Positions 1,662 to 63,499 are shown, counted from the first letter of the stretch. The stretch is DNA of 64,000 bases from a virus (IMGVR_UViG_3300027754_005427:1-64000), one strand, 5' to 3'. Notes: generated from the letters alone by a model not told the origin. A program made the numbers and translations.

Positions 1662-2927
1662 TTATTGTAAAATTTTAAGTCCTATAACAGGAGCTATTTC
1701 TGATAAATATTTAATATTATTTTTGCTTAAAAAAGGCTTATCAGATAAAGCTTCTTCTAATGATTCTTTGATATTTTTCAAGAAGTAATCAAAATGTTCT
1801 TGTAATGCAGACTTAAGTGCTTTTCCATGTTTAACAACTATTTCATAAACATTAATAAGATAATTAAAAATATTATCAGATGTAAACATATCTTCATAGA
1901 ATTCGTTAGCCCAAAAATAACTCTTTAAATAATAAACGGAATCAAGGTTTTGATTTTTTGATAGAATTTCCAATTGTTCTATTTTATCTTGATTATTTAT
2001 TGCTTTAAGAAACGCATCAATAATACTATCTTCTGCATATGAGTTGTTGTTTAATTCAAACAATTTATCTAATGGTAACGCATAATCTTTAGGTACTGCT
2101 TTTGCCCCGAACCATTTATCTGCATTTTTAGATCCTTCTATGTTTATTATTTTTAGTAATTCTTTTTTTAAAAAAGGAGCATTGGTTAAGTATTTATCAA
2201 CATAAAATTTTAATTGAGATACAGCTTTAATATTATTAGCCTTCCAGTCTTCTGAATCTTTTTTACCTTTAGAAGAATAAATTGTTCTGTGGTTTCCGCT
2301 TTTTCTATTAATAATTTCAATAAAGTCTAGCAGATCATTATCTAACAAAGGTTTTGCAGCTTGTTCCATAAAATCTACAAGTTTATTAATTAAAGATGTT
2401 GCATCAATAGTTTCAAAGAATTGTGCCCATGATCCTGTAGCTCTAGAAACAGAAACACTTTTTGTCAATTGATGAGTGGCAGATTGTCCTAGTTCAAAAT
2501 CAGGTAATTCTTGGCCAGTTGTAAAGCCAGTTTTTACTAGATCTACATCAAGTTTTTGTCCTATTTCTTTTTCAGCATTAGAAATATGTTTATCAATGAA
2601 TGTACCTTCTTCTTTATAAGGAATGGGTTTTAATCCATTTTTTTGAATTATTTGTATTAAGTTTTTAATAAACCCATAATCTGCTCCTGAACCAGCATGA
2701 AGGGGAGAATTTCTAATTATGCCTACATGAGTTGACTTAGCACCAATTGAAGAGTAGCCATTTTTTTCAGCTTTAAAAGCAGCTATAAAGTATTCAGAAT
2801 GTCCTTTATCCCATTGATAATAAAAATCAAAAGAAATGACATCTTTAGCAGGAATCAAAACAGCATCATCTTTTTGCCATTTTACGATTATATTTTCAGA
2901 TAGTATTAGCCATTGTTTAAAGTTCAT
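1662..2927 (-). CDS. hypothetical protein with MNFKxWL leader
   Basis: 421 aa ORF, N-term MNFKQWLILSE. Confidence 0.8.
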   Translation of the reverse strand: MNFKQWLILSENIIVKWQKDDAVLIPAKDVISFDFYYQWDKGHSEYFIAAFKAEKNGYSSIGAKSTHVGIIRNSPLHAGSGADYGFIKNLIQIIQKNGLKPIPYKEEGTFIDKHISNAEKEIGQKLDVDLVKTGFTTGQELPDFELGQSATHQLTKSVSVSRATGSWAQFFETIDATSLINKLVDFMEQAAKPLLDNDLLDFIEIINRKSGNHRTIYSSKGKKDSEDWKANNIKAVSQLKFYVDKYLTNAPFLKKELLKIINIEGSKNADKWFGAKAVPKDYALPLDKLFELNNNSYAEDSIIDAFLKAINNQDKIEQLEILSKNQNLDSVYYLKSYFWANEFYEDMFTSDNIFNYLINVYEIVVKHGKALKSALQEHFDYFLKNIKESLEEALSDKPFLSKNNIKYLSEIAPVIGLKILQ

Positions 2928-2953
2928 AGTTTATTTACAATTATTTGTTAAGT

Positions 2954-3943
2954 TTATCTTTGTTTAAGCATCCAATCATCTGGAAGTCCATTTTCTTTAG
3001 CAATTTCAATATCTGAAGGATACCAAACATTGGTTGCATTTTTTGTGTTATTAATGAAGTCTTGGTATGCTGCTCTTCTAGCATTTAAAAAATTCTTAAA
3101 TTCAGGAGGATATTTTCCAAGTTCTTTGTATCTTGTTGCAAGTTCTTTTGTTTGTTTGTTGCTTTTTAATTCAGGTTGAAGCTCAATCCAATCATCTGGA
3201 AGTCCATTTTCTTTGGCAACATCTATGTCTGAAGGATACCAAGTATGTTTTGATTTAATGTTATTAATGAAGTCTTGATATGCCATTCTTTTTTTATTTA
3301 AAAAACTCTTAAATTCAGCAGGATATTTTCCAAGTTCTTTATATCTTATTGCAATTGCTTTTACTTTTTGATTGCTCATTAGTTCATTTTGTCTTTCCAT
3401 CCAATTATCTGGTAGTCCATTTTCTTTGGCAACATCTATGTCTGAAGGATACCAAGTATATCTTGATTTAATGTTATTAATTAAGTCTTGGTATGCGATT
3501 CTTTTTTTATTTAAAAAATTCTTAAATTCAGCAGGATATTCTCCAGTTCCAAGTTCTTTGTATCTTATTGCAAGTTCTATTACTTTTTGGTTACTTGCAA
3601 GTTCACGAGCAAGTTCATGATTAGAATTTTTAGAATCAAACAAGCCAGACATATTGTTTTTATCTAAGATATCTTCATCTGTTGGGAAATAATTAATATT
3701 AATAATTTTAGCAGTTTTTCTGCTTTGCAAGAAGTCTGCTAGCATAACTTCTTCTGAATCAATATTATAAGAAATTTCACCGCTTGTAGTATGAGTACCA
3801 CCAAGTATTGATGTTTTTTTAGAAGGATTTCTGTTGTGGGTTTTTATCCAATCACATAACTTTTGAGTTAATTGATTAGATTCTGCTTCTTTAAAAGGGT
3901 CATGTATACTTTCAGAGATTAATAGCCAGCTTTTAAAGTTCAT
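2954..3943 (-). CDS. leader-bearing protein with three ~70-aa helicase-associated(HA)-like repeats
   Basis: MNFKSWLLISE; 3x SNxxxxxLAxRYKELG..YPxEFKxFLNxxRxAYQD..WYPSDIxxAKENGLPDxW. Confidence 0.75.
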   Translation of the reverse strand: MNFKSWLLISESIHDPFKEAESNQLTQKLCDWIKTHNRNPSKKTSILGGTHTTSGEISYNIDSEEVMLADFLQSRKTAKIININYFPTDEDILDKNNMSGLFDSKNSNHELARELASNQKVIELAIRYKELGTGEYPAEFKNFLNKKRIAYQDLINNIKSRYTWYPSDIDVAKENGLPDNWMERQNELMSNQKVKAIAIRYKELGKYPAEFKSFLNKKRMAYQDFINNIKSKHTWYPSDIDVAKENGLPDDWIELQPELKSNKQTKELATRYKELGKYPPEFKNFLNARRAAYQDFINNTKNATNVWYPSDIEIAKENGLPDDWMLKQR

Positions 3944-3946
3944 AGT

Positions 3947-5659
3947 TTATTTATTTTGTTCTTTTTGTTTTTGTATTAAATAATCTTTAACTGTTTGTGT
4001 TTTTGCATTATTGATAGTAAATGGGAAATCTTTTGGTTGTAGTATAAAACTTTTTTCATCAAAAAAGTATTTTAAAACATCAAGTTCTCCAGAAAGACTT
4101 GCAGATTTTACATCGCCAGATGTGATATTTTTCTTTTTTTCATCAATCAAATATTTTAAACCATTAAGGTTTCCATGCATTGCTGCAATACTAACAGCGT
4201 TATAAGGTATTGAGATATTTTTTTCATCAATTAAGTATCTTACAATATCAATATTATTTTGTCTAAAAGCATCTTCAATATCACTGTGTAGTACATTAAT
4301 ATTTTTTTCTTCAATCAAGTATTTTAAAATATCAAGTTTGCCATATTTTACTGCATACATAATTGGATTAGAAGAATCTAATATAATGCCGTGTTTTACA
4401 AAATATTTTAATAGGTCAAGTCTATCTGCCTTTATTGCGTGACCAGCAGCATAATATGGGACGCTTTGTCCTTTTTCGATCAATTCTGTTACTAGAGAAA
4501 AGTCTTCAATTTGAAGAGCTTTGTGAATTTTTAATTCATCAGTAACATTATAAAATTCTTCTTGTTGTTTTGGTGTAAATAAATTAAATTCTTCTTTAGA
4601 AAGATCTTCATGTTGTCTATCTAATATCAATCTATTATGCAGATAAATATCTTTTAATTCTTTTTTAGCAATAACTTTTTTAAGCTGATAATTTTCAAGT
4701 TTCAAACCAGTTTTAACATATTGTTTTAATAATGAAGCAATATTGTTATCATGTATATAATCAAATTGAGGATCTGAAAGTCTATGTACTCTTCCTATGT
4801 AATTAGATTTTTCTATTGGTGATAGTGCTTTAAACCAATTTAAATTATAATTTGTTTTACCTAATTTTGCCTGTTCAGCTTCTTCTTCTGGTGATTTTGG
4901 TATATTTTTGAATACAGTTGTATCAATTCCTTTTTCTTTTAAATATTTAAAGTATAAATCTGGGTCTGATGTTATTCTTTTTGGTGTAGTTTGATAAGGA
5001 TCTTGCATAGTTTTTGCTGTGTCGTTTTTTCGATCTGTAAGTTCAATACCATGTTCTGTTACATCAACTACAGTAATTGCAAGGTCATCAGTTCTTGTGT
5101 TATCATAAACGAAGTAGAAAGTTGATACTTTAGTATCTCTGTAAGTTTGGAACATATTATGTGGGCCGTGTCTTGATATACAGAAAGATTCACCTTTGCC
5201 GAGTACGATACATTGATTTGCTGAGTTTGCCAGATAAACCTTTATCTTAAGGTCTGGTGAATGTTCGATTACTTCTTGGCCTTCAAGATCGCCTTGTATT
5301 GGTGTATTGATAACTTTGCCTTCATGGGTTAAAACATCAATTATTTCAGTCCAATGGATAAAAGATTTAAAATCGCCATCAACAGTAAGGTCATCTTTTA
5401 CTGTAATGATGTTCATTTTTTGGTTTTTTACAAGATTGGCATAATCTTCCAAGTAGTCTTTTAGAACCACAATTTGTGGCTCTTCTTGGTTGTAGTAGAA
5501 TGCAGCGATGGGAAGTAATTGACCTTGTAATTTTTCTGGTATATTTGTTGGAATGATAGATTTTATTTTTTTAAATAAATCATCGTTGCCGAGAAGTTCT
5601 TTGGCAATGTCGCTTGATTTCTTTGCTTCAGTTATTAATAGCCAGCTTTTAAAGTTCAT
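3947..5659 (-). CDS. leader-bearing protein: conserved FCIS (PcfJ-like?) domain plus C-terminal ankyrin-like repeats
   Basis: MNFKSWLLITE; N-terminal ~350 aa homologous to 24685 and 27130 genes; C-term AVKYGKLDILKYLIEEK / AAMHGNLNGLKYLIDEK repeats. Confidence 0.8.
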   Translation of the reverse strand: MNFKSWLLITEAKKSSDIAKELLGNDDLFKKIKSIIPTNIPEKLQGQLLPIAAFYYNQEEPQIVVLKDYLEDYANLVKNQKMNIITVKDDLTVDGDFKSFIHWTEIIDVLTHEGKVINTPIQGDLEGQEVIEHSPDLKIKVYLANSANQCIVLGKGESFCISRHGPHNMFQTYRDTKVSTFYFVYDNTRTDDLAITVVDVTEHGIELTDRKNDTAKTMQDPYQTTPKRITSDPDLYFKYLKEKGIDTTVFKNIPKSPEEEAEQAKLGKTNYNLNWFKALSPIEKSNYIGRVHRLSDPQFDYIHDNNIASLLKQYVKTGLKLENYQLKKVIAKKELKDIYLHNRLILDRQHEDLSKEEFNLFTPKQQEEFYNVTDELKIHKALQIEDFSLVTELIEKGQSVPYYAAGHAIKADRLDLLKYFVKHGIILDSSNPIMYAVKYGKLDILKYLIEEKNINVLHSDIEDAFRQNNIDIVRYLIDEKNISIPYNAVSIAAMHGNLNGLKYLIDEKKKNITSGDVKSASLSGELDVLKYFFDEKSFILQPKDFPFTINNAKTQTVKDYLIQKQKEQNK

Positions 5660-5849
5660 GTAGGTATTTATGGTAGTAAATTTAACTTTACAAGGTCATT
5701 TTTATTTTACTAATTACAAAGATCAATAAATTTTTTCAAATAATCATTAGCATCTTTAGAATCACAGTCATCTTCAACTAGTGCTTTTTTATTTTTATTT
5801 GTACAAATAAAAGAAACTATTTCTAAAGCTGTTGGATTATTTTTTAAAA

Positions 5850-7751
5850 TTAAGCATCCTCATCTAAAACAGAAAGAAAATTAGTCACACAACTATTTTC
5901 TTCTTCAAATTTTCCATGTAATGCATTGATGTATTTTATTTTATTACTATCAATATGAATATTTTCAAATATTTCTTTTAAACCACCATTTTTACAAAGT
6001 TTGGCTAATGTATTTTTGTCTGAATAATGAATTAAGTTGCTAACACCACTCTCTCCATTGCCATCAATCCCACAAATTAGCATATGCAATAGCACATCTG
6101 GATTTTCAACAATGTCAAAGTTTTCGTTTTCTCCTTTTAACAACTCAAGTATATGATAATTTCCAAATACATTGCTCCAATTGTATTCATTCCATGTATC
6201 TGCAAAAACAAATTCTAATAATTCCAAGAAGTCTTTTTGACTTGGCGACTTTTGGATGAAGTAATAAATATTATCTGCGTCATATGGGGTTATAACTTTT
6301 ATAAATTTTACATATTCTTCTCTGATGCTGTTGTGGAATGACTCAAAAATTGTATTAGCTTCATTAGTAGATGTTTTTTCTATTGTTGAAAACTCAAATT
6401 TACTTAAAAACTCAAAAATTTGTTTTTCACAGTTTTCGTAACAATTTAAAATAATTTTTCTACATATTACTTCTAACGGAAATAGTACTTTTCCATTGCC
6501 ATCTTGAATCTTTGTAATTTTTACAAAAGTAGAAATGCTAATTCCTTTTGGCAATATTTCATTTGCTTGATCTATAAACCAACTATGATTTTTGATTTTA
6601 TCATAATAATTATTTGCTAGATTAAACACAAAGTTATCTTTATCACCATCCCAATATTCAATCATTGGATAAAAGACATCATTTTCCAGAGAAGTCTTTG
6701 TGTTTTCTTCAATATAATTTAAAGTTAAATTTATGATCTCGTTGTGATTTTCTAAATTCATGCTTAAAATATGTTTCAAGTTATATAAAGTTTCCATTGG
6801 ATTTTCTTTTAATTGTTCTTTTATAGATTCTCTTATATTATCAGGCTTAGATTTTAAAAATCTATTAAAAGGCTTTACTTCTTTCCCATCTGAATTATGA
6901 AAAGGAACTTCTTTTGGAATTGATTGTTTTAAAAAATCATATTCAAGAGGTAACAAAAAACTAACTTCATTATCTTTACTGTCTTTAAATTGTACATTTT
7001 TTCTTTCTATTCCTTTTTCATCAATAGTTGGCGGGGAATTTTTGAGAGAAAACTGGTATCTTGGTTTATTATTATATAAAAGAATATAAACTGGTACATA
7101 TTTGTATTCTTTATGATAATCACCAGTTGCTGTAGCTGTACACCAATCTGAGCTTCTACCTAAAGAGCAAAACACTCTGTGTCTTGAATTTATTTCATCT
7201 TCAGTATTATTTACTACAGGTGGAACATAATACAAGGAAAATCCATCATGCTCTGCAACTAGTTTTTTGTACTTAGAATCTGCATCAATCGTAATTCCTT
7301 TTTTTGAAAATAATTTATTTTTTGTATTAGAGATTTTGTTTTCTTCTTGTGATTTTTCAATTATATTATTTTTAGCTAATTTTCCTAATCCAAACCATCC
7401 TATTGAACCAATTGTTCTTTTAGTTATTTTGCCATTTGAAATCATTTCTATAGTAACATCTATAGCTCTTTTTAAATCTTCTAATCTAAAGTCTGGTTTT
7501 GTTTTAAAGAATCCTAAAGAAAACCTAAACCAATTTTTATCTTCCAAAACTTGAGTTCTCCCAGAAATTTTTGGTTCAAGACTTTTTTCGTGAATTGCAT
7601 TAGAAATTAGATTTTTAATCGTATCGTTTATCAATTCATACTGGATTAATTCTTTTTTTGGATCTATATATTTTACAAAATCATCCAACATATGATCGAA
7701 CATGTCATATATTAGCGATTCTTTTAGCAACCATTCTTTAAAATTTTGCAT
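5850..7751 (-). CDS. leader-bearing protein with WCT (PcfJ-like?) domain and helical C-terminus
   Basis: True start likely ATG 7751 (MQNFKEWLLKE); LGRSSDWCTA..Y..Y..VYI..RYQF..QFKDSKDN motif. Confidence 0.7.
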   Translation of the reverse strand: MQNFKEWLLKESLIYDMFDHMLDDFVKYIDPKKELIQYELINDTIKNLISNAIHEKSLEPKISGRTQVLEDKNWFRFSLGFFKTKPDFRLEDLKRAIDVTIEMISNGKITKRTIGSIGWFGLGKLAKNNIIEKSQEENKISNTKNKLFSKKGITIDADSKYKKLVAEHDGFSLYYVPPVVNNTEDEINSRHRVFCSLGRSSDWCTATATGDYHKEYKYVPVYILLYNNKPRYQFSLKNSPPTIDEKGIERKNVQFKDSKDNEVSFLLPLEYDFLKQSIPKEVPFHNSDGKEVKPFNRFLKSKPDNIRESIKEQLKENPMETLYNLKHILSMNLENHNEIINLTLNYIEENTKTSLENDVFYPMIEYWDGDKDNFVFNLANNYYDKIKNHSWFIDQANEILPKGISISTFVKITKIQDGNGKVLFPLEVICRKIILNCYENCEKQIFEFLSKFEFSTIEKTSTNEANTIFESFHNSIREEYVKFIKVITPYDADNIYYFIQKSPSQKDFLELLEFVFADTWNEYNWSNVFGNYHILELLKGENENFDIVENPDVLLHMLICGIDGNGESGVSNLIHYSDKNTLAKLCKNGGLKEIFENIHIDSNKIKYINALHGKFEEENSCVTNFLSVLDEDA

Positions 7752-7783
7752 ATCGGTATATATAAAAAAACTATAATAAAAAT

Positions 7784-7814
7784 GAACTACTGATTTTTTA
7801 TAAATTAGTAGTTT
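7784..7814. repeat. inverted repeat, second copy at 60514-60544
   Basis: GAACTACTGATTT-TTTAT-AAATTAGTAGTTT. Confidence 0.7.
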
Positions 7815-7837
7815 GTCAGCCACTGTTTAAAGTTCAT
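7805..7837 (-). pseudogene. orphan leader-only mini-ORF MNFKQWLTNY*
   Basis: GATAAATACCTAC-ATGAACTTTAAACAGTGGCTGACAAACTACTAA; upstream ATAAATACCTAC identical to that of the 5659 start. Confidence 0.65.
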
Positions 7838-9584
7838 GTAGGTATTTATCTATTAGCTCTTGAATTTCTGGTGTTTTCTTTGTGTGATAGTGATTTAAAA
7901 CTTGTGCCATTTTTTGTTTATCTGGGAATTTATTTATGTATTCATTCGGAAAATCAAGCAGACGATTAATAGAAGTTAATTCGAGCTTGCTTATATTATC
8001 TGTTCCTAACAGCTTTGCTATATTTTCTTTGTTAACTGCATAATAAAGCAAAATATAAACACTCTCATTATCAAAATTTGTTTTATAATCTATGATTATT
8101 TCTGCCAGTTTGTCTTTGTCGATTGCAAAATGGAGCAAATTAGAAATATCAAACTCATAAATATTGCTTATATTATATGCTCCTAATAGTTTCGCTATAC
8201 TTGCTTTACTTTTTGCAAAATGAAGCAAATTATAAACATTGTTACTAGAAAGTTTTGTTTTGTATTTTATGATTATTTCTGCCGTTTTGTCTTTATCTTT
8301 AGAAGATTTAAGAAATTCAGCAACAGTACTATCAAAAAGCTTATTTAAGCTATACGCTCCTAATAGTTTTTCTATGCTTTCTTTATCAATTGCATGATAA
8401 AGTAAGTAATAAATTTTATTATCATTAACAACTTTATTACTTCCATATTCTGTATTTTTCTCAATGATTAATTTTGCTATTTCGTCTTTGTTAGTTACTT
8501 TATCAAGTAAAGTAGAAACATCTTTAGTAGAAATCGTTGGTTTGTTATTTAAAATAATTTTAGCCATATCGTCTTTGTCATGTGCAAATTCAAGTAAATA
8601 AAGAACAATAGCATCAGAAAGTTGTGGGTTCTTTTTAATTATTATTTTTGACATTTCGTATGTGTTTTTTGTATTTTTAAGTAACTGGTGAACATTGTCA
8701 TCGGAAAGATCTTGTTTATTTTTAATAACTAAATTTTCTATTTTTTCTTTGTCTTTTGCTTTATCAAATAGATATTCAATGTCTTCATCAGTAAGATATT
8801 TTATTTTTTCTGGTTTTGAATGATAGTTTACAAAATCTAAATCTGGTTTTAATTTGAGTAGTTCTTCTTTATTACTTAAATCATCTAATGAAAAATTATT
8901 TTTTGGTAAATACCCACCGCCCTTGATGGTTATTATTTTGTCATTTTTAAGTAATTCTATTATTGGTTGATGAAATTTTGGAGATGGTTTTGAATTTTTC
9001 ATACCTTTCATTTCGCCTAATATTCCTTTATTTTCGATAAAAGTAAGATTTGCTATATTTTGCGGATCTCTTAAAGATAGGATGTTATCTCCTTCTATAC
9101 CAGCAGCATTACCACAATGCCCACCACTTTTTGCTTCCATTTCGCACTTATAACGATCTAAGGAAACCCATCGCCAGCCTTTCCATTGAGATCCTAAATG
9201 AGATAAATCTATAAAAGTTTCAGCTTCTCTAGCTGGGATTGCTTGGTTTGCTTCTAATTCTTCGTGCCATTCATCTGATTCTTGTGTTAGTTGTTCAAGT
9301 GTGAAGTTTGGATCGGTTAAATTTAGTTTTTGGTAATTAGCCATTAAATAATCTTTAGTGGAATAAATGTGGGTTTGAAAGTTTGATTCTTTTGAATTAT
9401 AAAAGTTCCAAGTATAAAAGTTAATGAAAGTGGATTTGATGTTTTCTTTTATGTTGTGAGCGAAAGCATTTACAAGTTTTGTTACATTTGATTTAATTTG
9501 TTTTATTATTGGATCATTGGATTGCTTTAATAATTGAGCAATGTTTGTGTTTTCAGATAATAATAGCCAGCTTTTAAAGTTCAT
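7827..9584 (-). CDS. leader-bearing PcfJ-like domain protein with C-terminal ~27-aa helical repeats
   Basis: MNFKSWLLLSE; SDEWHEEL..EAKSGGHCG..LSLRD..EMKGMKNSKP; about ten LSxxxVxxLLxxAxDKxxxAxIII repeats. Confidence 0.75.
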   Translation of the reverse strand: MNFKSWLLLSENTNIAQLLKQSNDPIIKQIKSNVTKLVNAFAHNIKENIKSTFINFYTWNFYNSKESNFQTHIYSTKDYLMANYQKLNLTDPNFTLEQLTQESDEWHEELEANQAIPAREAETFIDLSHLGSQWKGWRWVSLDRYKCEMEAKSGGHCGNAAGIEGDNILSLRDPQNIANLTFIENKGILGEMKGMKNSKPSPKFHQPIIELLKNDKIITIKGGGYLPKNNFSLDDLSNKEELLKLKPDLDFVNYHSKPEKIKYLTDEDIEYLFDKAKDKEKIENLVIKNKQDLSDDNVHQLLKNTKNTYEMSKIIIKKNPQLSDAIVLYLLEFAHDKDDMAKIILNNKPTISTKDVSTLLDKVTNKDEIAKLIIEKNTEYGSNKVVNDNKIYYLLYHAIDKESIEKLLGAYSLNKLFDSTVAEFLKSSKDKDKTAEIIIKYKTKLSSNNVYNLLHFAKSKASIAKLLGAYNISNIYEFDISNLLHFAIDKDKLAEIIIDYKTNFDNESVYILLYYAVNKENIAKLLGTDNISKLELTSINRLLDFPNEYINKFPDKQKMAQVLNHYHTKKTPEIQELIDKYLHEL

Positions 9585-9587
9585 AGT

Positions 9588-11255
9588 TTATATATTTATA
9601 AAGTTTTTATTAATTAAAAATTGTTCAAATGTTTTTGTAGGTTCAACTAATTCTGTTGGGTTTGATTCTGCTAAATATTTAGCATACATTTTATCGTGAT
9701 ATTTTTTTCTATCATCTGGTACATCTGGATTTGCAAACAAATCGTCAAATTCATCATCGTGTCTTATAAAATTCAAAATTATATCTTCAAAGTTATTTTC
9801 ATTTTTCCAATATGGAATTACAAGTAATGGAAAACTTTTATTTAAACAATAATTATATTTTTTACGATCATTTTTTTGAATATATAAAAATTGTTTAAGA
9901 GCATCTTTTGCTATTTCTTGTTTTGTTTTACCTTCTCTTGATCCAAAGTATACTGGATAATAATGTTGTTCTCCATGATACTCCACGAAATATTCTTGAT
10001 CATCGTACTCGAATGAATAATCAAATCTAAAACATTGTCCAGTTGTGATATTGCATTCTTTATCTATATATTCAGAATCTACATCATCAAAATATTTATT
10101 TAATATTTTTCCTACTAATTTAGCAGGTTTTGAAATGCCTTTTTTATCAACAGGTAAATACCAACCTTTTGGCAATCCTGCTTCTTCACCAACTTTTTTA
10201 TCTGTTTTGTACCATTTACTACTAGTGTAATTTGTTTTATTTTTAAGGTCTTGATATGCTTTTCTTTTCTGATATAGAAAGTCACTGAGTGGATTGTTTG
10301 GTAGCGGATCTTCTTTGTCAGGATTTTTTTTATCATTAAAATGAATACCTAAATTTTTTAAGTTCTGATCATTTTTTATTTGGTTATTCAGAGAAGCTTT
10401 TGCAATTGCACAATCAGGACAATTACTACCGTTTGTTCTATTGTAAAGCGGTGCTTTCCATGTGTGTGTTTTATTTTCAAGGCATTTCCAACTTATCATT
10501 TTGTTACTTTTTGGCATTACATCACTAGGAGTAAGCTGCTCTCCGTCATCTTTTTTATTTTTAAATCCAAATTCATCTTTCCCATAATCCCATTCAGATA
10601 CCAATCTTTTATATCTAGCTTTATCAGGATTTGATTCATTTTCAGATAAGCCCTGTAAACTATTGTCTTTATTAATTCTTTTGTTTGTAATTGAACAATC
10701 AGGACAATTTTTACCATTTTTTCTATTGTCAATTCTTGCTTCCCATATGTGTCCTTCTTTACATTTCCAATTTATCATTTTGCTAGACGAGGTGGTTACA
10801 TCAGCAGGAGTAAGCTGTTCTCCGTCATCTTTTTTATTTTTAAATCCAAATTCATCTTTCTCATAATCCCATTCAGATACCAATCTTTTGTATCTAGCTT
10901 TTAAAACAGGATTTGATTCAGTTTCAGATAAAGCCTGTAAACTATTATCATCGCCAATTCTTTTGTTTGCACAAGTAGGACAATTTCTACCATTTGTTCT
11001 ATTGTTAAGCGGTGCTGGCCATGTGTGTTCTTTTTCACATTTCCAATTTATAATTTTCCTACTTCCTGGCGTTACATCACTAGGAGTTAATGTATTATTT
11101 TTTTTATCCCATTCAGATACCAGTCTTTTATATCTAGCTTTTAAATCAGATTCTGGTAAATTTTCAGATAAAGCCTGTAAACTATTTGTTTCAAGATATT
11201 TAGGTGAAAAGGACTTTGCCATTTCAGAGATTACTAGCCAGCTTTTAAAGTTCAT
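9588..11255 (-). CDS. leader-bearing protein: 3 Zn-ribbon (DUF4379-like) repeats, HA-like module, C-terminal Vsr/PD-(D/E)xK-like endonuclease
   Basis: 3x EWD..N..LTPxDV..S.K.I.WKC..H.W.A....R.NG.NCPxC; RFDY..VEYHGEQHY..KYNYC..PLLVIPYW. Confidence 0.75.
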   Translation of the reverse strand: MNFKSWLVISEMAKSFSPKYLETNSLQALSENLPESDLKARYKRLVSEWDKKNNTLTPSDVTPGSRKIINWKCEKEHTWPAPLNNRTNGRNCPTCANKRIGDDNSLQALSETESNPVLKARYKRLVSEWDYEKDEFGFKNKKDDGEQLTPADVTTSSSKMINWKCKEGHIWEARIDNRKNGKNCPDCSITNKRINKDNSLQGLSENESNPDKARYKRLVSEWDYGKDEFGFKNKKDDGEQLTPSDVMPKSNKMISWKCLENKTHTWKAPLYNRTNGSNCPDCAIAKASLNNQIKNDQNLKNLGIHFNDKKNPDKEDPLPNNPLSDFLYQKRKAYQDLKNKTNYTSSKWYKTDKKVGEEAGLPKGWYLPVDKKGISKPAKLVGKILNKYFDDVDSEYIDKECNITTGQCFRFDYSFEYDDQEYFVEYHGEQHYYPVYFGSREGKTKQEIAKDALKQFLYIQKNDRKKYNYCLNKSFPLLVIPYWKNENNFEDIILNFIRHDDEFDDLFANPDVPDDRKKYHDKMYAKYLAESNPTELVEPTKTFEQFLINKNFINI

Positions 11256-11259
11256 AGTT

Positions 11260-11267: not shown

Positions 11268-11270
11268 GTT

Positions 11271-12521: not shown

Positions 12522-12568
12522 AGAGGTATTTATCTTTATAAATTTAAATTTAAACACATAAATATATT

Positions 12569-53907: not shown

Positions 53908-53912
53908 TTAGA

Positions 53913-54632
53913 TTATCTATTATAATTTATAATGTAATCATTTTGATTTTTAAAATTAATATTTGCTGTGTTTATATTCTGGACATGGGTTTTCATTTTT
54001 GAATTTTGAAAACATATGACTTTAATCAATCCAAGTATAATTATTTCTTTAGAATAATCTGACATAAATGCATCAACTTGTTTTTCTATTTTATTATGTA
54101 GCCTCAAAAGAGTTTCAGCACCATGGTTACTAAGTAAATACGCATGTGTTAAAAAAAATCTATCCACTATAGCTAAATTATTATTTAAAATTTGATATGG
54201 AGTCGTACTAGCCCATCCTAAATTTATCATCCCCCATTTAATTTTTACTTCATTTACAACTTTGTTTATTTTTGAAAAAATATCTTCTGGTATTGTCGAA
54301 TCATCTTCTAAAATCAAACAATAATCGCCATCTTTATTTTTTAAGCACTCCTCCCAACACTTCATATGACTCAAATAACAACCAACTGCACCTTCTGTCA
54401 AAGACTCATGAAATTTTCTTTTTTTATTTTTAATCGCACTAATTAATTCTGTAGTGGCATCTATAGAAATTTTATTTTCACAAGCAAATTTATGCCACAA
54501 ATCTCCTCTGCTATCAACTGCTTCTATGAATTCCAATTTCCAATCATTATTCCATTGCTTAAGAAATTCATTTTTTCTCATGGAATCATCCTTGAGATTT
54601 ATGACAAACGCACCTTTATAATTATAAAACAC
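53913..54632 (-). CDS. GT25 glycosyltransferase (third paralog)
   Basis: FVINL, LTEGAVGCYLSH, ILEDDS, THAYLLS..GA; GTG start. Confidence 0.8.
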   Translation of the reverse strand: MFYNYKGAFVINLKDDSMRKNEFLKQWNNDWKLEFIEAVDSRGDLWHKFACENKISIDATTELISAIKNKKRKFHESLTEGAVGCYLSHMKCWEECLKNKDGDYCLILEDDSTIPEDIFSKINKVVNEVKIKWGMINLGWASTTPYQILNNNLAIVDRFFLTHAYLLSNHGAETLLRLHNKIEKQVDAFMSDYSKEIIILGLIKVICFQNSKMKTHVQNINTANINFKNQNDYIINYNR

Positions 54633-54683
54633 ATTAACCTTTCACTATGTAAAACTGGAATATCTTAAGTTAAAATTAATACA

Positions 54684-55076
54684 CTAAACAATAGCCAAGT
54701 TTGTATCAATTGCCATTAATTCTTCTAGCACTATAGCAGTTTGAATTGCTTTTCTTTTAGTTGCAAATGAACTTGCCAACATTGATCTTGCATTACCATA
54801 GTTCAACATCAATGATGTCATTTTTTCTAAAGAATTAAAAGTTATTATAGAATCATCAATTGCAATTATTTTTGGCAAAGGCAATCCTAAACTAGAAGCT
54901 TCTTTTGCCAATGCATAAGCTCCAGATAATAACGCAATATCATTTGCAGATATACCAATGCTAAAACCTTGGCCAGAATTCCATCCAGAATTTAATAGTT
55001 TTTTCCATTGATTGTTAAGTTCTATTAATTTTTTAATTCTAATAAAATATAATCGGAAGCTTTCTACAATACTCAT
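54684..55076 (-). CDS. DUF4376-like tail-assembly-type protein
   Basis: Start ATG 55076; I.D.....F...M..L...Y....KAI..A...EEL.AI pattern. Confidence 0.45.
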   Translation of the reverse strand: MSIVESFRLYFIRIKKLIELNNQWKKLLNSGWNSGQGFSIGISANDIALLSGAYALAKEASSLGLPLPKIIAIDDSIITFNSLEKMTSLMLNYGNARSMLASSFATKRKAIQTAIVLEELMAIDTNLAIV

Positions 55077-55086
55077 TTTTAAACCT

Positions 55087-55881
55087 TTAAACATTAATGT
55101 TAAATTTATCATAATAATTTGTTAAATATTCTCCCAAAATTTCCTTTGGGCTTGTACTTGTCTTTTCTAATTTACTTCTGATTGCATGAAGATTATCTAA
55201 TCCCCATGCTTTATCTTTAGTCTCTGCACAAACATTATCGATGTTATTAAAATTGTAATTTTTATATTCATCTAAACCAATAAAATCATATATCTTTTTC
55301 ATTGTTTCAACTGGGGCTTGAACTAAATCATCATAATTAACTAAATGCAAACATTCTAAATGATTTTTTATTCCATGCACAGTACTTTGATATGGATCAG
55401 AAATATATTCTTCCCATAATACTTTAGCTCTATTTTCTGTGCTAATGTGTAATCTTTTACTTCTCAATGTGTTGTCAACAAAATTATCTTCTTGCTTGTT
55501 ATTTATAATCAATTTTATATATGATGTTATAACTTCACTAATTGGTCTAACAGTGCAAATTATCTTAGGATTAGAACTTACAAACATTTTTGCTGGAATT
55601 ATATTTCTTGGCCAGCCTCTATGCTTATCAAATACTACATCTGTTTTAAATTGATTGTAATAGGAATCAATTATAGCCTTGTAAACACCATTAGACAAGC
55701 CTTCTGCATCAAAAGTGTAGTTGGAGTTTAATTTAGAAAAAGCCTCGTTATTTAAGCATAACAAGTCCAGCAAAGGACTTGTTGGTGTAACTTTTATTTT
55801 TGAATTTTGACCTAAAATAGAACCAAGCAGCGTTGATCCACTTCTTGGTAATCCACTAAGGAAAAATATAGATTTTTTCAT
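55087..55881 (-). CDS. sulfotransferase family protein
   Basis: SGLPRSGSTLL, DKHRGW, RPISEVITS, YDDLV..P. Confidence 0.85.
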   Translation of the reverse strand: MKKSIFFLSGLPRSGSTLLGSILGQNSKIKVTPTSPLLDLLCLNNEAFSKLNSNYTFDAEGLSNGVYKAIIDSYYNQFKTDVVFDKHRGWPRNIIPAKMFVSSNPKIICTVRPISEVITSYIKLIINNKQEDNFVDNTLRSKRLHISTENRAKVLWEEYISDPYQSTVHGIKNHLECLHLVNYDDLVQAPVETMKKIYDFIGLDEYKNYNFNNIDNVCAETKDKAWGLDNLHAIRSKLEKTSTSPKEILGEYLTNYYDKFNINV

Positions 55882-56330
55882 GTTTTCACCATGTAAACTG
55901 CATTTAAACCATAATAATCAATAGTTTTCTGATTTTGAAATCCAAACTTATTCCAAAAGTTTTCAGATTCAAGAACAGACATAAGAACTTTTGGATTTGA
56001 CTTTATTCTTAATACTTGATCGACCAAAGCAATTCCATATCCCTTACCTCGATGTGATTTTTCAACACAAAGATCATGAATGTAATGACAATCAGGACCT
56101 TCAACTTTTTTATAATTCTCATTTATTGGGTAATATTCCCACAAAGTGTAAGGAAAAGAAATAATATATCCTACTATTTCCTTATTAATCTCACAAACGA
56201 AACAACCTTCTGGGTATCCTAATATCTTGGAACGAAAAGATTCACTACCCTCATAGTAATTATCAGGATAACTACTTGTTCCAATGTGATCTATGAAATC
56301 AAAATCTTCTTTTTTTGCATATCTAATCAT
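55878..56330 (-). CDS. GNAT acetyltransferase
   Basis: MIRYAKKED, YIHDLCV..HRGKGYG, FWNKFGF. Confidence 0.8.
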   Translation of the reverse strand: MIRYAKKEDFDFIDHIGTSSYPDNYYEGSESFRSKILGYPEGCFVCEINKEIVGYIISFPYTLWEYYPINENYKKVEGPDCHYIHDLCVEKSHRGKGYGIALVDQVLRIKSNPKVLMSVLESENFWNKFGFQNQKTIDYYGLNAVYMVKT

Positions 56331-56390
56331 AGTTTTATTATAGCGTTTGATATATATATTGATATGCAAAATTAATAGGGAGTAATTGTC

Positions 56391-57350
56391 ATGAAATCAT
56401 TTATGGAATATGTACAACTGAAAAACGAAGGCTACTTTGATTTTTTCAAACCGAAAAAACCTGCTCCTGCTGGTGCTTCAACTGCTCCTACTGGTGCTTC
56501 AACTGCTCCTACTGGTGCTTCTGACAGAGAGAAAAAAAGAAAGCCTTTAGGTACTTATGATCCTTACACTGCCAAATATAGTCCTCTAACGAAAGATGGA
56601 CCAAGCTATGTAAATGATAAGCGTATGTCGCCTGATAAAGCAGCAGCAGCCGAAGATCAATATGATAAAAACAGTGCGACTGCATATCCTATAGAAAAAC
56701 AAGATCCTGGCATGAAAGCATTAATAGACCAGGGCAATGCTGTGGATAAATTTAAAAAATTAGAAGACGATATTAAATATGGAAGATTTTCGTACGATAC
56801 AAGCAATGTTCCAAAAATGATGCTTTTTATGTTGAATAATCATATGGATGGCAGCTATATGCCATTTTTCGGTTCTTTGGTAAAAAACAATGCGGTTAAA
56901 ATGATTCCATATGATCTCGCTTTGAGAACTATGGAATTAAACTTTGGAAATAACTCAAGTACGATGGCACTTAAATCTTTTCTCGCAAGACATCTTATGG
57001 AAAAAACTCCAAGTAAAATACAAGGTTTAGAATCATTGGAGTTAATCAGACAAAGTTTAGTATCAACTGATAAATGGGCAAAAAGAATTTTACATACACC
57101 TGATTTCTTACAACACATAAAAGAAGAAGATATAAAAGACATTTTGTTGAAATTCTTTGAAAGAAGACCAGACTTGGCGAAGAAATATTACGAAGAAAAT
57201 GGCGAAAGAATGCGACTTAATCAAAAGTACAAACAAGCAAATGACTCAAGATATCAGAAACCAAATGATATGGAAAATTTAATCTATTCCATGTTTGGCG
57301 GAAAAAACGAATCATTCAAGACACATAAAAAATCACTATTCGAATGGTAA
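56391..57350 (+). CDS. hypothetical protein with leader-like MKSFMEYVQLKNE
   Basis: GGGAG SD; short APTGAST repeats. Confidence 0.7.
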   Translation: MKSFMEYVQLKNEGYFDFFKPKKPAPAGASTAPTGASTAPTGASDREKKRKPLGTYDPYTAKYSPLTKDGPSYVNDKRMSPDKAAAAEDQYDKNSATAYPIEKQDPGMKALIDQGNAVDKFKKLEDDIKYGRFSYDTSNVPKMMLFMLNNHMDGSYMPFFGSLVKNNAVKMIPYDLALRTMELNFGNNSSTMALKSFLARHLMEKTPSKIQGLESLELIRQSLVSTDKWAKRILHTPDFLQHIKEEDIKDILLKFFERRPDLAKKYYEENGERMRLNQKYKQANDSRYQKPNDMENLIYSMFGGKNESFKTHKKSLFEW

Positions 57351-57353
57351 ACT

Positions 57354-57677
57354 ATGAACTTTAAAGAATGGCTACAAAATCGTGATCCCGAAATGTTGAA
57401 TGAAGGCAAAAAACCATTCAAAAATTTCAACAAAGAAAAAAACCATCCAGAAGGTGGACTTAAACCATCATATGCCAAAAAATTAGGTATTCACGCAGGT
57501 ATTGAAACTAAGCGTGAAGCCGAAAGAAAAGGCGGTGTTGATAAAATGTCTAAAAAAACAAAAGCTAGAAGAAAATCATTTTGTGCAAGAATGTGTAAAG
57601 CAGGAACAGAAAAAAGTAGAAATGATCCTGAAAGCAAACAAAGAGCAGCTTTGAGAGTTTGGAAGTGCAGATGCTAG
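57354..57677 (+). CDS. leader-bearing basic protein, DUF6321-like (T4-like phage family)
   Basis: MNFKEWLQNRDPEMLNE; ARRKSFCARM..DPES..ALRVWKC. Confidence 0.7.
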   Translation: MNFKEWLQNRDPEMLNEGKKPFKNFNKEKNHPEGGLKPSYAKKLGIHAGIETKREAERKGGVDKMSKKTKARRKSFCARMCKAGTEKSRNDPESKQRAALRVWKCRC

Positions 57678-57694
57678 TTTTTAAGGATAATTAA

Positions 57695-58306
57695 ATGAAT
57701 ATAATAAAAACTTGGCAAGAATACATAGAAAAAAACTTACTTGATTTAATTAATGATCCTCTTGAGGGTAACCTTTACTCTAGTCATTTAAAAAGAACAA
57801 AAGAACCTGCAATGTTTTATAAACAAAAAAACATTGTAAATCTTATAGAATTACTTAAACCTAAAAATATATTAGAAATAGGATTCAATGCTGGTTTCTC
57901 GACATTGCTAATGAAAATAATTGATCCAGAAATAAACATGACTTGTATAGACATAAATAGTCACTCTTATGTAATACCATGTTACAAGCAAATATGCAAG
58001 GATTACAAAAATATAAAACTTATATTAAAAAACTCAATAATAGCATTGCCAGAATTAATTGAAATGAAATTAAAATTCGATATAATCCATATAGATGGAG
58101 ATCACAATGTAAAACAAGCAGAAAAAGATTTGAATTTTTGCTTAAGCTTATGCACTTCAAAAAGTGTAATTATTATAGATGATACAAACTTACAAAGTAT
58201 AAATGATTTGTGTGAAAAATACATACATAAAAAAGTTGTAAAAGAATGCACTCTATGTAAAGTAGAATGTGAAAAATACAAACATAAATTTTTAGAAGTA
58301 TTATGA
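57695..58306 (+). CDS. class I SAM methyltransferase (Methyltransf_24-like)
   Basis: ILEIGFNAGFS, FDIIHIDGDH, IIDD. Confidence 0.8.
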   Translation: MNIIKTWQEYIEKNLLDLINDPLEGNLYSSHLKRTKEPAMFYKQKNIVNLIELLKPKNILEIGFNAGFSTLLMKIIDPEINMTCIDINSHSYVIPCYKQICKDYKNIKLILKNSIIALPELIEMKLKFDIIHIDGDHNVKQAEKDLNFCLSLCTSKSVIIIDDTNLQSINDLCEKYIHKKVVKECTLCKVECEKYKHKFLEVL

Positions 58307-59064
58307 AAATATACATATCTTTAACCAGTATATTTCAAAATCAAAATATTCTTTTGAAAACATTGAAAAGTATAAAAGAACAAACACTAAAGCCAAACGA
58401 ATGCATAATTTACTTGTCTGAAAAACCTTATCTTTTAGATGCTGGATTTAAAGGTAGAATACTTAACAACGACTTAAGTATTTTCTTAAAAGAAAATGAA
58501 CTTTTTAAAATCAAATGGTGTAAAAATACAGGGCCGTATAGAAAACTTTTGCCTTTATTGAAAAAAAAACTAGAAGAAGATTGTTTAATTATAGCAATAG
58601 ATGACGATACTGAATATCATCCTTCATTAATAGAAAATTATGTTAATGATTATAAAGATAAAAACTGTTGTATATCTTACAGAGGATTTACAATGATGAA
58701 AAATAATGAAAATAAAATAGATTATGATGTAAGAGGAAAATTTATAAATAATAATCTATTTAATTTTCATGTGGGAAAAGCAGGTGTCTTATATCATCCT
58801 AAATTTTTCAGTAAAACAAAAGATATAATTTTCAAAAGAAAAATTTACACAGAGTGTTGCGAAACTGGTGATGATATTTGGTTTAACTTTATGCGTATAG
58901 CAAATGGAATAAATTGTTATATTGATCAAAAACCATATATGACAAATGATTTTACTAATCCAATTACTGCTTTGTGGTTTAATTTTAATAGTGTCAATAA
59001 ATTAGATACAATTAATATTAATAAAACAATTGAAAAATTAATTAAATTAAATGTTTTAAGTTAA
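58303..59064 (+). CDS. GT-A fold glycosyltransferase
   Basis: ISLTS, GPYRKLLP, IDDD..Y, GVLYHP, DDIWF. Confidence 0.7.
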   Translation: MKIYISLTSIFQNQNILLKTLKSIKEQTLKPNECIIYLSEKPYLLDAGFKGRILNNDLSIFLKENELFKIKWCKNTGPYRKLLPLLKKKLEEDCLIIAIDDDTEYHPSLIENYVNDYKDKNCCISYRGFTMMKNNENKIDYDVRGKFINNNLFNFHVGKAGVLYHPKFFSKTKDIIFKRKIYTECCETGDDIWFNFMRIANGINCYIDQKPYMTNDFTNPITALWFNFNSVNKLDTININKTIEKLIKLNVLS

Positions 59065-60704: not shown

Positions 60705-61482
60705 AAAATAATTATTTTTCCACTACAAACATATAAACTAAATTAAGTGTCTAAATTTAATTTTTTATTTTTTTCTAATTCTTGTGTGTAAGTTATAGGT
60801 GAAGGAAGACCACTTTGCTTAGTTGAAACAAGTTTTAAGTTAAACCTTTGAGCTATTTGTTCAAAATTAGGTATTTTTTTTCCTATTTCTGGCGAATAAT
60901 AAAGTGTATCCCATATAATTTCTTTTCCAAAAACAAGTGCTTCATCGTAATGAGAGCGAGTAGGATTGAGTGGAGTAATTGGAAGTGATTCTGTAGAATT
61001 GTCGTCTAAAAGATTTGTAGATACATCTTTTGCATAGTAATATTCAATTCGCCCAATACCAGAAATAACAAGTTCTGTATTCCACACACCTTTAGCTTTT
61101 TCGCCAATAGAAACAGAAATTTGTTTGATGCTATTTATTATATTGTATATTCTTTCTTCAAAGTCATCTAACGCAATCGTTTTGTAAACTTTAACTTTAT
61201 TATTATACTTCTTATTGATTATCGCAGCCCTGCCTCTTGCTTTTTGCTCCATTTCCTTGGCTTGTTTTGGATTTTTGTAGGCATGGTCAGGATTAGAATT
61301 CCAAGAAATAATTTTTTCTTTATCTTTTTTAGAATTAGGAACTTGCGGAGTCCTATTGAAAAGATCTTCTTTTATTTGAAAACTTTCCATCCATTTCACA
61401 AATGATTTCATGCATTATTTATGAAGCCATTTATGAATTCATAATATTTTATTTCAAAATAATTATTTTTCCACTACAAACA
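60705..61482. repeat. 27-bp perfect direct repeat flanking gene 60743-61411
   Basis: AAAATAATTATTTTTCCACTACAAACA at 60705-60731 and 61456-61482. Confidence 0.85.
60743..61411 (-). CDS. hypothetical protein with leader-like MKSFVKWMESFQIKE
   Basis: CATAAATA-N4-ATG, no SD. Confidence 0.7.
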   Translation of the reverse strand: MKSFVKWMESFQIKEDLFNRTPQVPNSKKDKEKIISWNSNPDHAYKNPKQAKEMEQKARGRAAIINKKYNNKVKVYKTIALDDFEERIYNIINSIKQISVSIGEKAKGVWNTELVISGIGRIEYYYAKDVSTNLLDDNSTESLPITPLNPTRSHYDEALVFGKEIIWDTLYYSPEIGKKIPNFEQIAQRFNLKLVSTKQSGLPSPITYTQELEKNKKLNLDT

Positions 61483-62575: not shown

Positions 62576-62580
62576 TTAAC

Positions 62581-62931
62581 TTAACCATTCCAATATTTGA
62601 CTGGAATTAGTCTTTTGGGAAAATGTTTCAAAGCTATGGCAATACGATGATGTCCATCAGTTAAAGTTTGATTTTCATCCTTATCAACATGAATTTCAAT
62701 TGGAGTCTTAATTCCATCTTTTAAAATCTTATCAAGTAAACCTGTTTTTTTGGCATTATCATATTTAAAATCCAACAGCTTTTTGTCATCACCATTAGCA
62801 AAATCAAATCTTCCACGAAGATCATCGTGATCTTCAAAACTAACCGAACCAATTATTTCTTTGGCAGACAAAGATTTTGGCAAATGTTCAAATTGCGTAT
62901 TTTTGTTTTCTAAAAATTCTTTAAATCTCAT
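62581..62931 (-). CDS. leader-bearing ParB/Srx-like domain protein
   Basis: Start ATG 62931 (MRFKEFLE); ILKDGIKTPIEI..LTDGHHRIA..IPV. Confidence 0.7.
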   Translation of the reverse strand: MRFKEFLENKNTQFEHLPKSLSAKEIIGSVSFEDHDDLRGRFDFANGDDKKLLDFKYDNAKKTGLLDKILKDGIKTPIEIHVDKDENQTLTDGHHRIAIALKHFPKRLIPVKYWNG

Positions 62932-63046
62932 GTAATTATTTATCATAAAAATATCAAGAAAATCTTAAAATAATCTAATATATATTAAATAATTTTTAGT
63001 TAAAAGAATTTTAATATTATTTTTAATATAAACAATAAATAATATT

Positions 63047-63499
63047 ATGAAATTTAAAGATTATGTTGAAAAAAGAGATCTGCTTGAAGCTAACTGGTGG
63101 GAAGACGATAAAGAAACTCTTGGAAAAATCAAAGAAATAATAGCAGGTGTAGTAATGAAGTCTGGTAAAACTCCAGATGAATACAAAAAGATAACAGAAT
63201 CATTGTATGAACTTTTATATTCTTTTTATAGATCAATAAAAATTATAAAAGAAAAAGAATCTAAGGATAGTAGCTTTTCTACTTTGAAAAAAAATGGTTT
63301 ACTTGATATGACTAAAGATATTGAAAATAATAAAAATATAAAAAAAGCTATTATGAATAAATTAAACAATGATGGTATTGTGTCTAAAATTGAAAAAGAA
63401 ATAGTAACAGCAGTAGAAAAAGAAATAGAAAATGAAAATATGTCAGACGCAAAAAGATATGCAGATGGCAAAGATCAATCTAATAACGCTTTTAGATAA
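63047..63499 (+). CDS. hypothetical protein with leader-like MKFKDYVEKRDLLE
   Basis: AATAAATA-N5-ATG, no SD. Confidence 0.65.
   Translation: MKFKDYVEKRDLLEANWWEDDKETLGKIKEIIAGVVMKSGKTPDEYKKITESLYELLYSFYRSIKIIKEKESKDSSFSTLKKNGLLDMTKDIENNKNIKKAIMNKLNNDGIVSKIEKEIVTAVEKEIENENMSDAKRYADGKDQSNNAFR

Follow-up and report, generated by a model that had tools for sequence, protein, structure and literature searches.

In bacteriophage T4 the capsid-cargo principle has been known for 30 years, and the site of the T4 prohead protease is L/I-x-E. Mullaney and Black (1996) reportedly described the capsid targeting sequence that is carried by the internal proteins IPI, IPII and IPIII and removed by the prohead protease gp21. 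In the T4 record AF158101, IPII and IPIII start with MKTYQEFIAE and IPI with MKTFKEF...ITE. Integrons, which possess an integrase and attC, carry cassettes of unrelated genes head to tail that are gained and lost at a short conserved boundary. The T-even internal proteins, of which at least ten are known, are described in the available sections of PMC12373910 and PMC3012670 as having only an N-terminal packaging leader in common, with Ip1-3 each blocking a different GmrSD, and according to the available part of PMC5694885 cleavage after Glu is common to the S77-type proteases of T4, phiKZ and SPN3US. Here we analyze a 64,000-nucleotide stretch of viral DNA (IMGVR_UViG_3300027754_005427:1-64000, hereafter the window), which covers the first 64 kb of a linear IMG/VR virus record of 86,926 bp (contig G000), and in which 18 genes begin with a leader of comparable kind. 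This leader is a short element at the extreme N-terminus that is common to proteins otherwise unrelated in sequence; it has the form M-x(0-4)-[FY]-x-x-[WFY]-[LIVM]-x(0-3)-E over 10-17 residues, and here is mostly MNFK(S/E/Q)WL(L/I)xSE. The tag is real, strongly non-random, N-terminal, and stands on unrelated protein bodies; it is probably a T4-style capsid-cargo tag that has been expanded far past T4 in a clade of uncultured huge phages.

All 18 N-termini listed in an earlier, sequence-only reading of this DNA (13 'strong' and five 'looser') are found at the start coordinates it gave, although an internal ATG has to be chosen to expose the leader in two long open reading frames (ORFs; 7751 and not 7823, 12521 and not 12557). 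Searching all six frames of the whole contig with the strict core F[KR]xW[LM] yields 13 matches, 12 of which lie directly behind an ATG. Eleven of them head ORFs of 80-633 amino acids (aa), one is a truncated remnant at 7837 on the minus strand, and the match at 32663 is not N-terminal and is unrelated. In 100 mononucleotide shuffles the number of core matches averages 1.33 and reaches a maximum of seven, versus the 13 observed. The two genes beginning MNFNFQEWL (24685 and 27130) fall outside F[KR]xW[LM], and the strong set numbers 13 once they are added. A looser pattern fits 21 of the 109 called ORF N-termini versus 1 of 318 internal methionines (Fisher p = 1e-12), a pattern that was written after seeing the data, such that all of the leader-pattern statistics are post hoc; moreover, paralogues are not independent of one another, nor are contigs that were found through the DNA pattern. 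Eighteen of these 21 N-termini make up the earlier list. The starts at 24176 and 46260, which are hydrophobic and have no Glu, were rejected as leaders, as was 32888, an internal Met.

Similarity among the tagged proteins had been said to end past the leader except within paralogue groups, and this holds: when the first 16 residues are removed, BLASTP (E<=1e-3) resolves the proteins into two trios and 12 singletons. Trio A consists of the genes at 2954, 9588 and 11271, and trio B of those at 3947, 24685 and 27130. The size range that had been given for the leader proteins, 80-918 aa, is correct, and the 18 genes occupy 21,594 nt, or 34% of the window. It is also the case that the metabolic genes are without the leader, as among 30 non-leader proteins scanned, 17 score above the Pfam curated cut-off (glycosyl-, sulfo- and methyltransferases, a metallophosphoesterase, UvdE, DHFR, thymidylate synthase, a DUF1559 pilin, RCC1, a C39 peptidase and others) and none of these is leader-initial. 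In a close relative, G004 (101 kb), an 813-aa trio-A homolog (81165-83606, locus L144) starts without the leader, which indicates that the tag is modular. Scanning IMG/VR with the DNA pattern identified 110 stretches with 145 matches; 102 of these open an ORF of 40 aa or more in which a Glu follows the WL after 0-4 residues. Spurious single matches exist, such as the 7-aa ORFs in G018, G031 and G047. Related genomes carry about 20-30 leader proteins each.

The leader had been called T4-like, and the pattern derived from the window does retrieve IPII and IPIII among the 69 ORFs of a 40-kb T4 locus, together with one spurious match. As read from the sequences, this is a similarity of form, and common descent is not implied. 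An [LIVM]-x-E occurs within the first 17 residues of 15 of the 18 leaders versus 20 of 86 other N-termini. Nine genomes contain 172 unique leader-like starts, some of them false positives, and 130 of these have a Glu 0-4 residues past the aromatic-aliphatic pair, versus 521 of 1904 controls. The capsid proteins of the clade (for example L137:10950-12374 in G001 and L250:16509-17939 in G020) have a common N-terminus, MN(I/A)NAKFLNEAKELE..., and a conserved ...LLENQRLINE/VSTDTGDVAQFKR (...RLINE/VSTD...) directly before the Gp23 domain. RLINE/VSTD is a plausible candidate for a capsid maturation site, and it resembles leader ends such as WLINE.

The sequence-only reading had proposed looking for a gp21-type prohead protease and gp23; none is present in the contig (86.9 kb, about 24% of the genome), but both are present in relatives that bear the tag. 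Peptidase_S77 is found in 13 of the 46 tag-matched records searched, including G001, G002 and G030, most of the 46 being less than 40% complete. In G001 (323 kb), S77 (E = 1.9e-27) and Gp23 (E = 1.5e-89) are encoded in a portal-protease-scaffold-capsid block, in which the scaffold position is occupied by a 317-aa ORF that has no family match. This block is flanked on both sides by small ORFs beginning MKSYKEYLLSE, MKSFQEYL, MKTFNEFIE and MKSFNEWLNE, and small tag-bearing ORFs stand directly beside portal genes. G001 shares 21 of the 109 contig proteins, including leader-bearing homologs of 5850-7751, 7827-9584 and 17970-19688. The head gene order of G001 recurs in G020, G029, L289 and L316, as judged by similarity to the G001 module (Pfam was applied to G001 only). 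The 511-kb genome of G030, which is complete and has terminal repeats, encodes S77 together with about 20 leaders that are credible. In G029, the window genes at 13218-14683 have homologs at a distance of about 3 kb from the capsid gene. Loci around capsid genes could be tied to the contig in two ways only, both indirect. On contig L289, which derives from the same sample as G004, a homolog of the G004 ortholog of 57354-57677 (82% identity) is encoded 5.3 kb away from a T4-type capsid gene. The overlap of the protease-bearing fragments G015, G016, G020 and G029 with G000, G004 or G044 amounts to only 3-7 proteins, because they cover other parts of the genome. The nearest database relative of the clade capsid gene is in a 595-kb metagenomic phage (75% identity); the next are at most 36% identical, and cultured phages likewise at most 36%. 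LR756511.1 (595 kb) has no exact match to the DNA pattern, and in its head region no more than three starts are loosely leader-like.

We also note that the window encodes a Peptidase_C39-like protein (32321-32833, minus strand; 23.4 bits with a cut-off of 22), of which 93-94% identical copies (L316:11552-12112 and L308:6148-6708) are located about 2 kb downstream of T4-type capsid genes. This protein is unusually conserved for a mosaic clade.

One group of phages served as a natural negative control. Five records that contain a 148-aa tail-module protein (about 72% identity) have no tag pattern, S77 or Gp23; two of them are 92% and 100% complete, and the group comprises 142-kb complete and 190-kb genomes. 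Over 586 kb of these phages the loose pattern is matched by 5 of 392 ORFs, not one of them convincing. The 148-aa protein had been tried as a link to the head module and led instead to this different phage group without tag, S77 or Gp23, and a 473-aa protein tried for the same reason led to G044, which is also without the head module. The contig copy of the 148-aa protein is encoded in the tail region past the window (G000 83488-83934, equivalent to L002:488-934) and is about 72-74% identical to that of the separate phage group; the tail module has passed between phage lineages that are unrelated.

The capsid-targeting role put forward in the sequence-only reading is supported in part: it agrees with all of the computational tests that were run (T4 likeness, the Glu site, S77 and Gp23 in relatives, and the controls), and core binding, cleavage, packaging, ejection and any anti-defence role are what we infer. 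A plausible scenario is that the tag would attach a freshly synthesised protein to the scaffolding core while the prohead assembles, and that after closure of the shell a gp21-type Peptidase_S77 would cut behind the Glu of the hydrophobic-x-Glu, with the tag then leaving the head. The mature proteins would remain inside with the DNA, to be expelled into the host at infection, where they would act early, two nuclease-like proteins, one kinase-like and one ankyrin-repeat protein being among them. If they are delivered in this way, the proteins would act before phage gene expression and are therefore prime candidates for anti-defence or host-takeover functions.

The leader genes at the left of the window are arranged on the minus strand. 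Gene 1662-2927 encodes 421 aa beginning MNFKQWLILSE and has no Pfam or PHROG match; its G004 ortholog is 99.5% identical, its G030 homolog (704 aa) begins MNFKEWLLLSE, and the atlas returned nothing usable for it, with an atlas model of predicted local distance difference test (pLDDT) 0.35. Gene 2954-3943 (329 aa, MNFKSWLLISE) belongs to trio A and has internal repeats, its Pfam matches all being sub-threshold. It is followed by 3947-5659 (570 aa, MNFKSWLLITE), which combines the trio-B N-terminal domain with ankyrin repeats (Ank_2 E = 2.4e-15), and by 5850-7751 (633 aa, MQNFKEWLLKE), a cassette missing from G004 that has a homolog in G001 (86535-88400) at a leader-pattern match. The truncated remnant at 7805-7837, also on the minus strand, reads MNFKQWLTNY and then a stop, and has its own upstream box, ATAAATACCTAC. 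Gene 7827-9584 encodes 585 aa beginning MNFKSWLLLSE, with a 97% identical G004 ortholog and a 50% identical G001 homolog beginning ...KFSEWLLLIE. The trio-A genes 9588-11255 (555 aa, MNFKSWLVISE) and 11271-12521 (416 aa, MNFKSWLLSE) both encode a nuclease-like C-terminal part. The former also has three treble-clef zinc fingers (DUF4379 E = 2.1e-42 over three stretches; phrog_559 'HNH endonuclease' E = 1.1e-22), and the latter matches phrog_559 (E = 2.6e-13) and phrog_9084 (E = 2.4e-11).

The remaining members of the strong set are more dispersed. Gene 12569-13231 on the plus strand (220 aa) begins MLKFRNWLMRFE, is without an [LIVM]-x-E site, and has a weak kinase-like match (phrog_18305 'kinase' E = 3.6e-5). 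Gene 17970-19688 (minus strand, 572 aa) begins MKFKKWLLLIE, and its G001 homolog (28126-30081) begins MNFKNWLE. The trio-B genes 24685-27126 (813 aa) and 27130-29886 (918 aa) are both on the plus strand and begin MNFNFQEWLLILEE; for the trio-B domain and 27130-29886 the atlas gives unnamed viral clusters only. Gene 45969-46211 (minus strand, 80 aa) begins MLGQTFKNWLIMSE, its Ser codon being AGC where the array has TCT, and its G004 ortholog begins MDNINFKDWLIMKE; 57354-57677 (plus strand, 107 aa) begins MNFKEWLQNRDPEMLNE. Among the looser leader genes, 21341-21805 (minus strand, 154 aa, MKTFEIYMIEE) is the nearest to the T4 leader in form, and 56391-57350 (plus strand, 319 aa) begins MKSFMEYVQLKNE, has no [LIVM]-x-E in its first 17 residues, and has an 87.5% identical ortholog with the same start in G044. 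Neither 60743-61411 (minus strand, 222 aa, beginning MKSFVKWMESFQIKE) nor 62581-62931 (minus strand, 116 aa, MRFKEFLE) has a G004 homolog. Gene 63047-63499 (plus strand, 150 aa) begins MKFKDYVEKRDLLE, and its G004 counterpart is only 33% identical, with flanking genes that are 94-99% identical.

The functional labels that had been attached to these proteins fared unevenly. Ankyrin repeats and treble-clef zinc fingers are solid matches in Pfam, and 'nucleases' (two proteins) and 'kinase' (one protein, at the E-value given above) are backed by PHROG matches only. 'ParB-like' has no match in either Pfam or PHROGs. Beyond the families listed here, no ParB, PcfJ or further family is found for the leader bodies at E<=0.01 in Pfam and PHROGs, and most of the bodies have no domain recognisable as an enzyme with these databases.

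Comparison with G004 reveals how leader genes are gained and lost. The two genomes are syntenic, and G004 has matches for 79 of the 109 contig proteins, mostly 75-99% identical. A cassette of about 2.2 kb (5660-7848, minus strand), consisting of one leader gene and a spacer, is present here and absent from G004, and is bounded by direct repeats composed of the upstream box and the first leader codons. The remnant at 7805-7837 marks the left breakpoint of the cassette, the upstream box and first codons being duplicated on either side. This breakpoint is inside the leader: the sequence is still identical to that of G004 over the upstream box and the first codons, and is no longer so past TGGCT. 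Joints in metagenome contigs show further deletions ending at gene starts, from 2934 to 7842 (runs X4 and X12) and from 9596 to 13226 (run X8, depth 99); the contigs concerned are short, and joints of this kind carry a warning from the tool. In run X8, which is from one lake, contig depth over 1000-14300 of the window varies about 10-20-fold between neighbouring cassettes, being about 100 at 1662-2927, 3947-5659 and 7827-9584, and about 5-12 at 2954-3943, 5850-7751 and 9880-12987. Strains with differing cassette sets thus appear to coexist in this lake. Arrays are general in the clade and reach 7-10 consecutive cassettes, with ten leaders in 13 kb in IMGVR_UViG_3300009161_000023 (locus L033). 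The leader DNA, together with a box resembling a T4 late promoter, is a breakpoint at which whole genes come and go, and insertion of cassettes with the breakpoint inside the leader accounts for the identity of leader DNA among the array genes.

The box, (C/T)ATAAATA(A/C)CT, precedes the ATG of leader genes by 3-5 nt, and these genes have no Shine-Dalgarno sequence. Late-promoter-like boxes are found at 2928-2945, 3944-3960, 5660-5675, 9585-9600, 11256-11270, 12522-12568, 61412-61425, 62932-62946 and 63030-63046, and ATAAATA or TATAAAT occurs within 25 nt upstream of 9 of the 18 leader genes versus 5 of 86 others. Similar boxes precede protease or capsid genes in G001 and G020. The head genes of the relatives have GGAG-type ribosome sites, unlike the leader genes, and the box without a Shine-Dalgarno sequence suggests a class of leaderless or near-leaderless late mRNAs. 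At the same time the motif survives in-frame length variants (MNF, MQNF, MLKF and MLGQTF) and the Ser codon switch between TCT and AGC, and the 61 strict leaders of nine genomes (30-39% G+C) use 17 DNA versions of the F-K/R-x-W-L codons. It is possible, and we offer it tentatively, that in this clade of freshwater phages with genomes of 0.3-0.5 Mb a module of about 33 nt, made up of the late-promoter-like box and the leader codons, could be at once the start of a leaderless late mRNA, a prohead address that leads to clipping and delivery of the product, and a homology patch for swapping whole cargo genes between phages in an integron-like manner.

A number of observations weigh against a capsid-cargo tag. 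Three of the 18 leaders have no [LIVM]-x-E. Searches with T4 tail, baseplate and neck proteins (phmmer) found no matches in G000, G004, G044 and G001, and weak ones only in G030, so that 'T4-like' is valid for the head genes only. Peptidase_S77 and Gp23 were not found in the 86.9-kb contig, nor was S77 in the two genomes closest to it, G004 (101 kb) and the syntenic G044 (165 kb); all three are 24-34% fragments, and a protease in this lineage itself is putative. Kinship to the protease-bearing genomes is modest, at 21 of 109 proteins for G001 and 8 of 109 for G030. Two S77-negative records have plausible leaders, G022 (78% complete) with two matches, and G042 (100% complete) with one that heads a 97-aa ORF. 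That leader genes turn over faster than others between G000 and G004 is no more than a trend (median 45 versus 79, one-sided Mann-Whitney p = 0.14), and the excess of leader genes below 70% identity to G004 (12 of 18 versus 33 of 76 others) is not significant (p = 0.11). There is also a signal at the nucleotide level, in that an identical 21-mer opens five array genes, and the Leu after Trp is encoded by CTA in 28 of the 61 strict leaders (for example at 2907-2909, 3923-3925 and 5639-5641) versus 8-14% CTA genome-wide, a codon count that is biased because the contigs were partly found by DNA pattern. The CTA excess may reflect gene conversion or a constraint at the nucleotide level. Finally, a packaged nuclease would have to be kept off the phage's own DNA.

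It could be that the tagged proteins are packaged and clipped but are internal components of the head (core, inner-body or DNA-organising) and not host effectors. The position of small tag-bearing ORFs next to portal genes and the scarcity of recognisable enzyme domains are in keeping with this, as is the finding, in the available part of PMC5694885, that protease-processed head proteins of phiKZ and SPN3US are often structural or functionally unassigned. The set of tagged genes, however, is highly variable between near-identical phages, with cassettes present or absent and 4 of the 18 leader genes having no G004 homolog, and such variability is more in keeping with accessory than with structural genes. 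Scaffold parts do not typically contain nuclease-like, kinase-like or ankyrin domains, and the leader-bearing internal proteins of T4 are dispensable anti-restriction factors in the portion of PMC12373910 available. We consider a purely internal role unlikely, and favour delivery of the proteins as cargo.

The Peptidase_C39-like protein of the window (32321-32833), whose copies lie near capsid genes elsewhere, raises the alternative that the N-terminus is a recognition tag for some other machine (a modifying enzyme, the C39-like peptidase, a chaperone or another sorting system) and has no role at the capsid. C39 peptidases cut after Gly-Gly, however, and the leaders contain no Gly-Gly. Modification by a radical enzyme finds no match either, since Radical_SAM is not detected in G000, G004, G044, G001 or the complete G030, with a control that was positive in 14 of 14 genomes. 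As the tag also has the form of the T4 leader and the Glu site of an S77 protease, service to another machine seems very unlikely, and a capsid address is the better fit.

A further alternative is that the element acts as DNA or RNA, as a promoter and translation start for leaderless late mRNAs or as a recombination patch, and that the peptide is a by-product. The five identical 21-mers, the ATAAATA(A/C)CT box 3-5 nt before the ATG in place of a Shine-Dalgarno sequence, the CTA bias (28 of 61 versus 8-14%) and the cassette breakpoints inside leader DNA are all of the kind that this would produce, but it is the amino acid motif that outlasts codon changes, in-frame insertions and the passage among genomes of 30-39% G+C in its 17 DNA versions. 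The conserved Glu lies beyond the identical DNA, and the T4 leader has the same form in different DNA. We therefore give very little credence to a peptide that is only a by-product; a DNA role in recombination and a peptide role in targeting are compatible, with the nucleic-acid role as a second function. Chance or composition, by which AT-rich genomes would yield many Met-Asn-Phe-Lys starts and which the spurious single IMG/VR matches might recall, is excluded for practical purposes by the shuffles (1.33 versus 13), the internal methionines (1 of 318), the control phages (5 of 392) and the 102 of 145 IMG/VR matches that are credible.

The window is a piece of an uncultured freshwater huge phage. 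The contig has a G+C content of about 30% and a completeness of 24% (CheckV), from which the genome is estimated at about 360 kb, and beyond the window it encodes tail-fibre, tail-collar and RCC1-propeller proteins, which identify a tailed phage. Many studies dated 2017 to 2025 contain its DNA, in metagenomes of freshwater, lakes and sediment. Among the genes outside the leader set, those at 16258-23387, 36770-37516 and 48276-59064 are rich in sugar-tailoring enzymes, including GT1/GT4, GT2 and GT25 glycosyltransferases, two kinds of sulfotransferase, FkbM and O-methyltransferases and a metallophosphoesterase, with ThyA, DHFR and UvdE encoded as well. The product of gene 44998-45948 (minus strand) is like a type IV pilin, and has both DUF1559 (E = 1.8e-39) and an N-terminal methylation motif. 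The DUF1559 pilin family is typical of Planctomycetota, and its occurrence on a phage is a hint at the host.

If the tag works as in T4, an N-terminal pattern would identify the virion-delivered proteome of an uncultured huge-phage clade, about 20-30 proteins per genome, and virion-delivered proteins would make up a third of the coding sequence of the window, most of them without a known fold. Should the tentative three-job module also prove correct, a single phage would bring large enzymes into its host by the dozen (nucleases, kinase-like and ankyrin proteins of up to about 100 kDa), and the injected proteome of uncultured phages would be readable from sequence. Arrays of cassettes that break at the tag would also reveal the way in which arsenals of this kind change hands, and a short tag that loads proteins of about 100 kDa could serve the engineering of phage capsids.

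The closest comparison is with the T4 internal proteins, which similarly have a short N-terminal leader on unrelated proteins, with a pattern of Met, 1-3 residues, an aromatic, two polar residues, an aromatic, an aliphatic, 0-3 residues and Glu. The hydrophobic-x-Glu ending and the T4-late-promoter-like boxes are further likenesses, and the relatives encode S77 and a Gp23-type capsid. Whereas T4 has three internal proteins of 95-193 aa, there are 13-18 in this 64-kb window, of 80-918 aa and with multi-domain bodies; the core here is F-K-x-W-L and that of T4 Y-Q-E-F-I, and the lineage shares only head genes with T4. The hypervariable ip loci of T-even phages, as described in the available part of PMC12373910, likewise comprise a diverse accessory set that is known by its leader, varies between close relatives and is clustered in hotspots. 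No body here resembles Ip1-3, however, and the T-even loci differ from arrays of up to 7-10 cassettes with breakpoints in the leader DNA, for which no description was found in the T-even ip literature (the sections of PMC12373910 at hand).

The giant phages phiKZ, 201phi2-1 and SPN3US also load many head proteins and have an S77-family protease that cuts after Glu, and the SPN3US proteins gp53 and gp54 have conserved N-termini on diverged paralogues, as is seen here (available part of PMC5694885). In the same text most of their propeptides exceed 100 residues and have A/S/G-x-E sites, and a short tag common to unrelated proteins is lacking, unlike the tag of 10-17 residues that is common to at least nine BLAST-unrelated families here. 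Within the limited literature set searched, no paper other than that on SPN3US was found to link the capsid targeting sequence to huge, jumbo or mega-phages, and none was found to describe huge phages with a short tag shared among proteins; a comparative paper on jumbo phages (PMC7824862) contains no occurrence of 'leader', 'internal protein' or 'prohead protease'. The likeness to integrons is a functional analogy only, in that both are head-to-tail arrays whose unrelated genes come and go at a short conserved boundary. Here there is no integrase and no attC, the boundary is coding (box plus leader codons), and exchange would use homologous recombination. Relative to the long-known T4 principle, what is new is the scale, the lineage and the cassette architecture.

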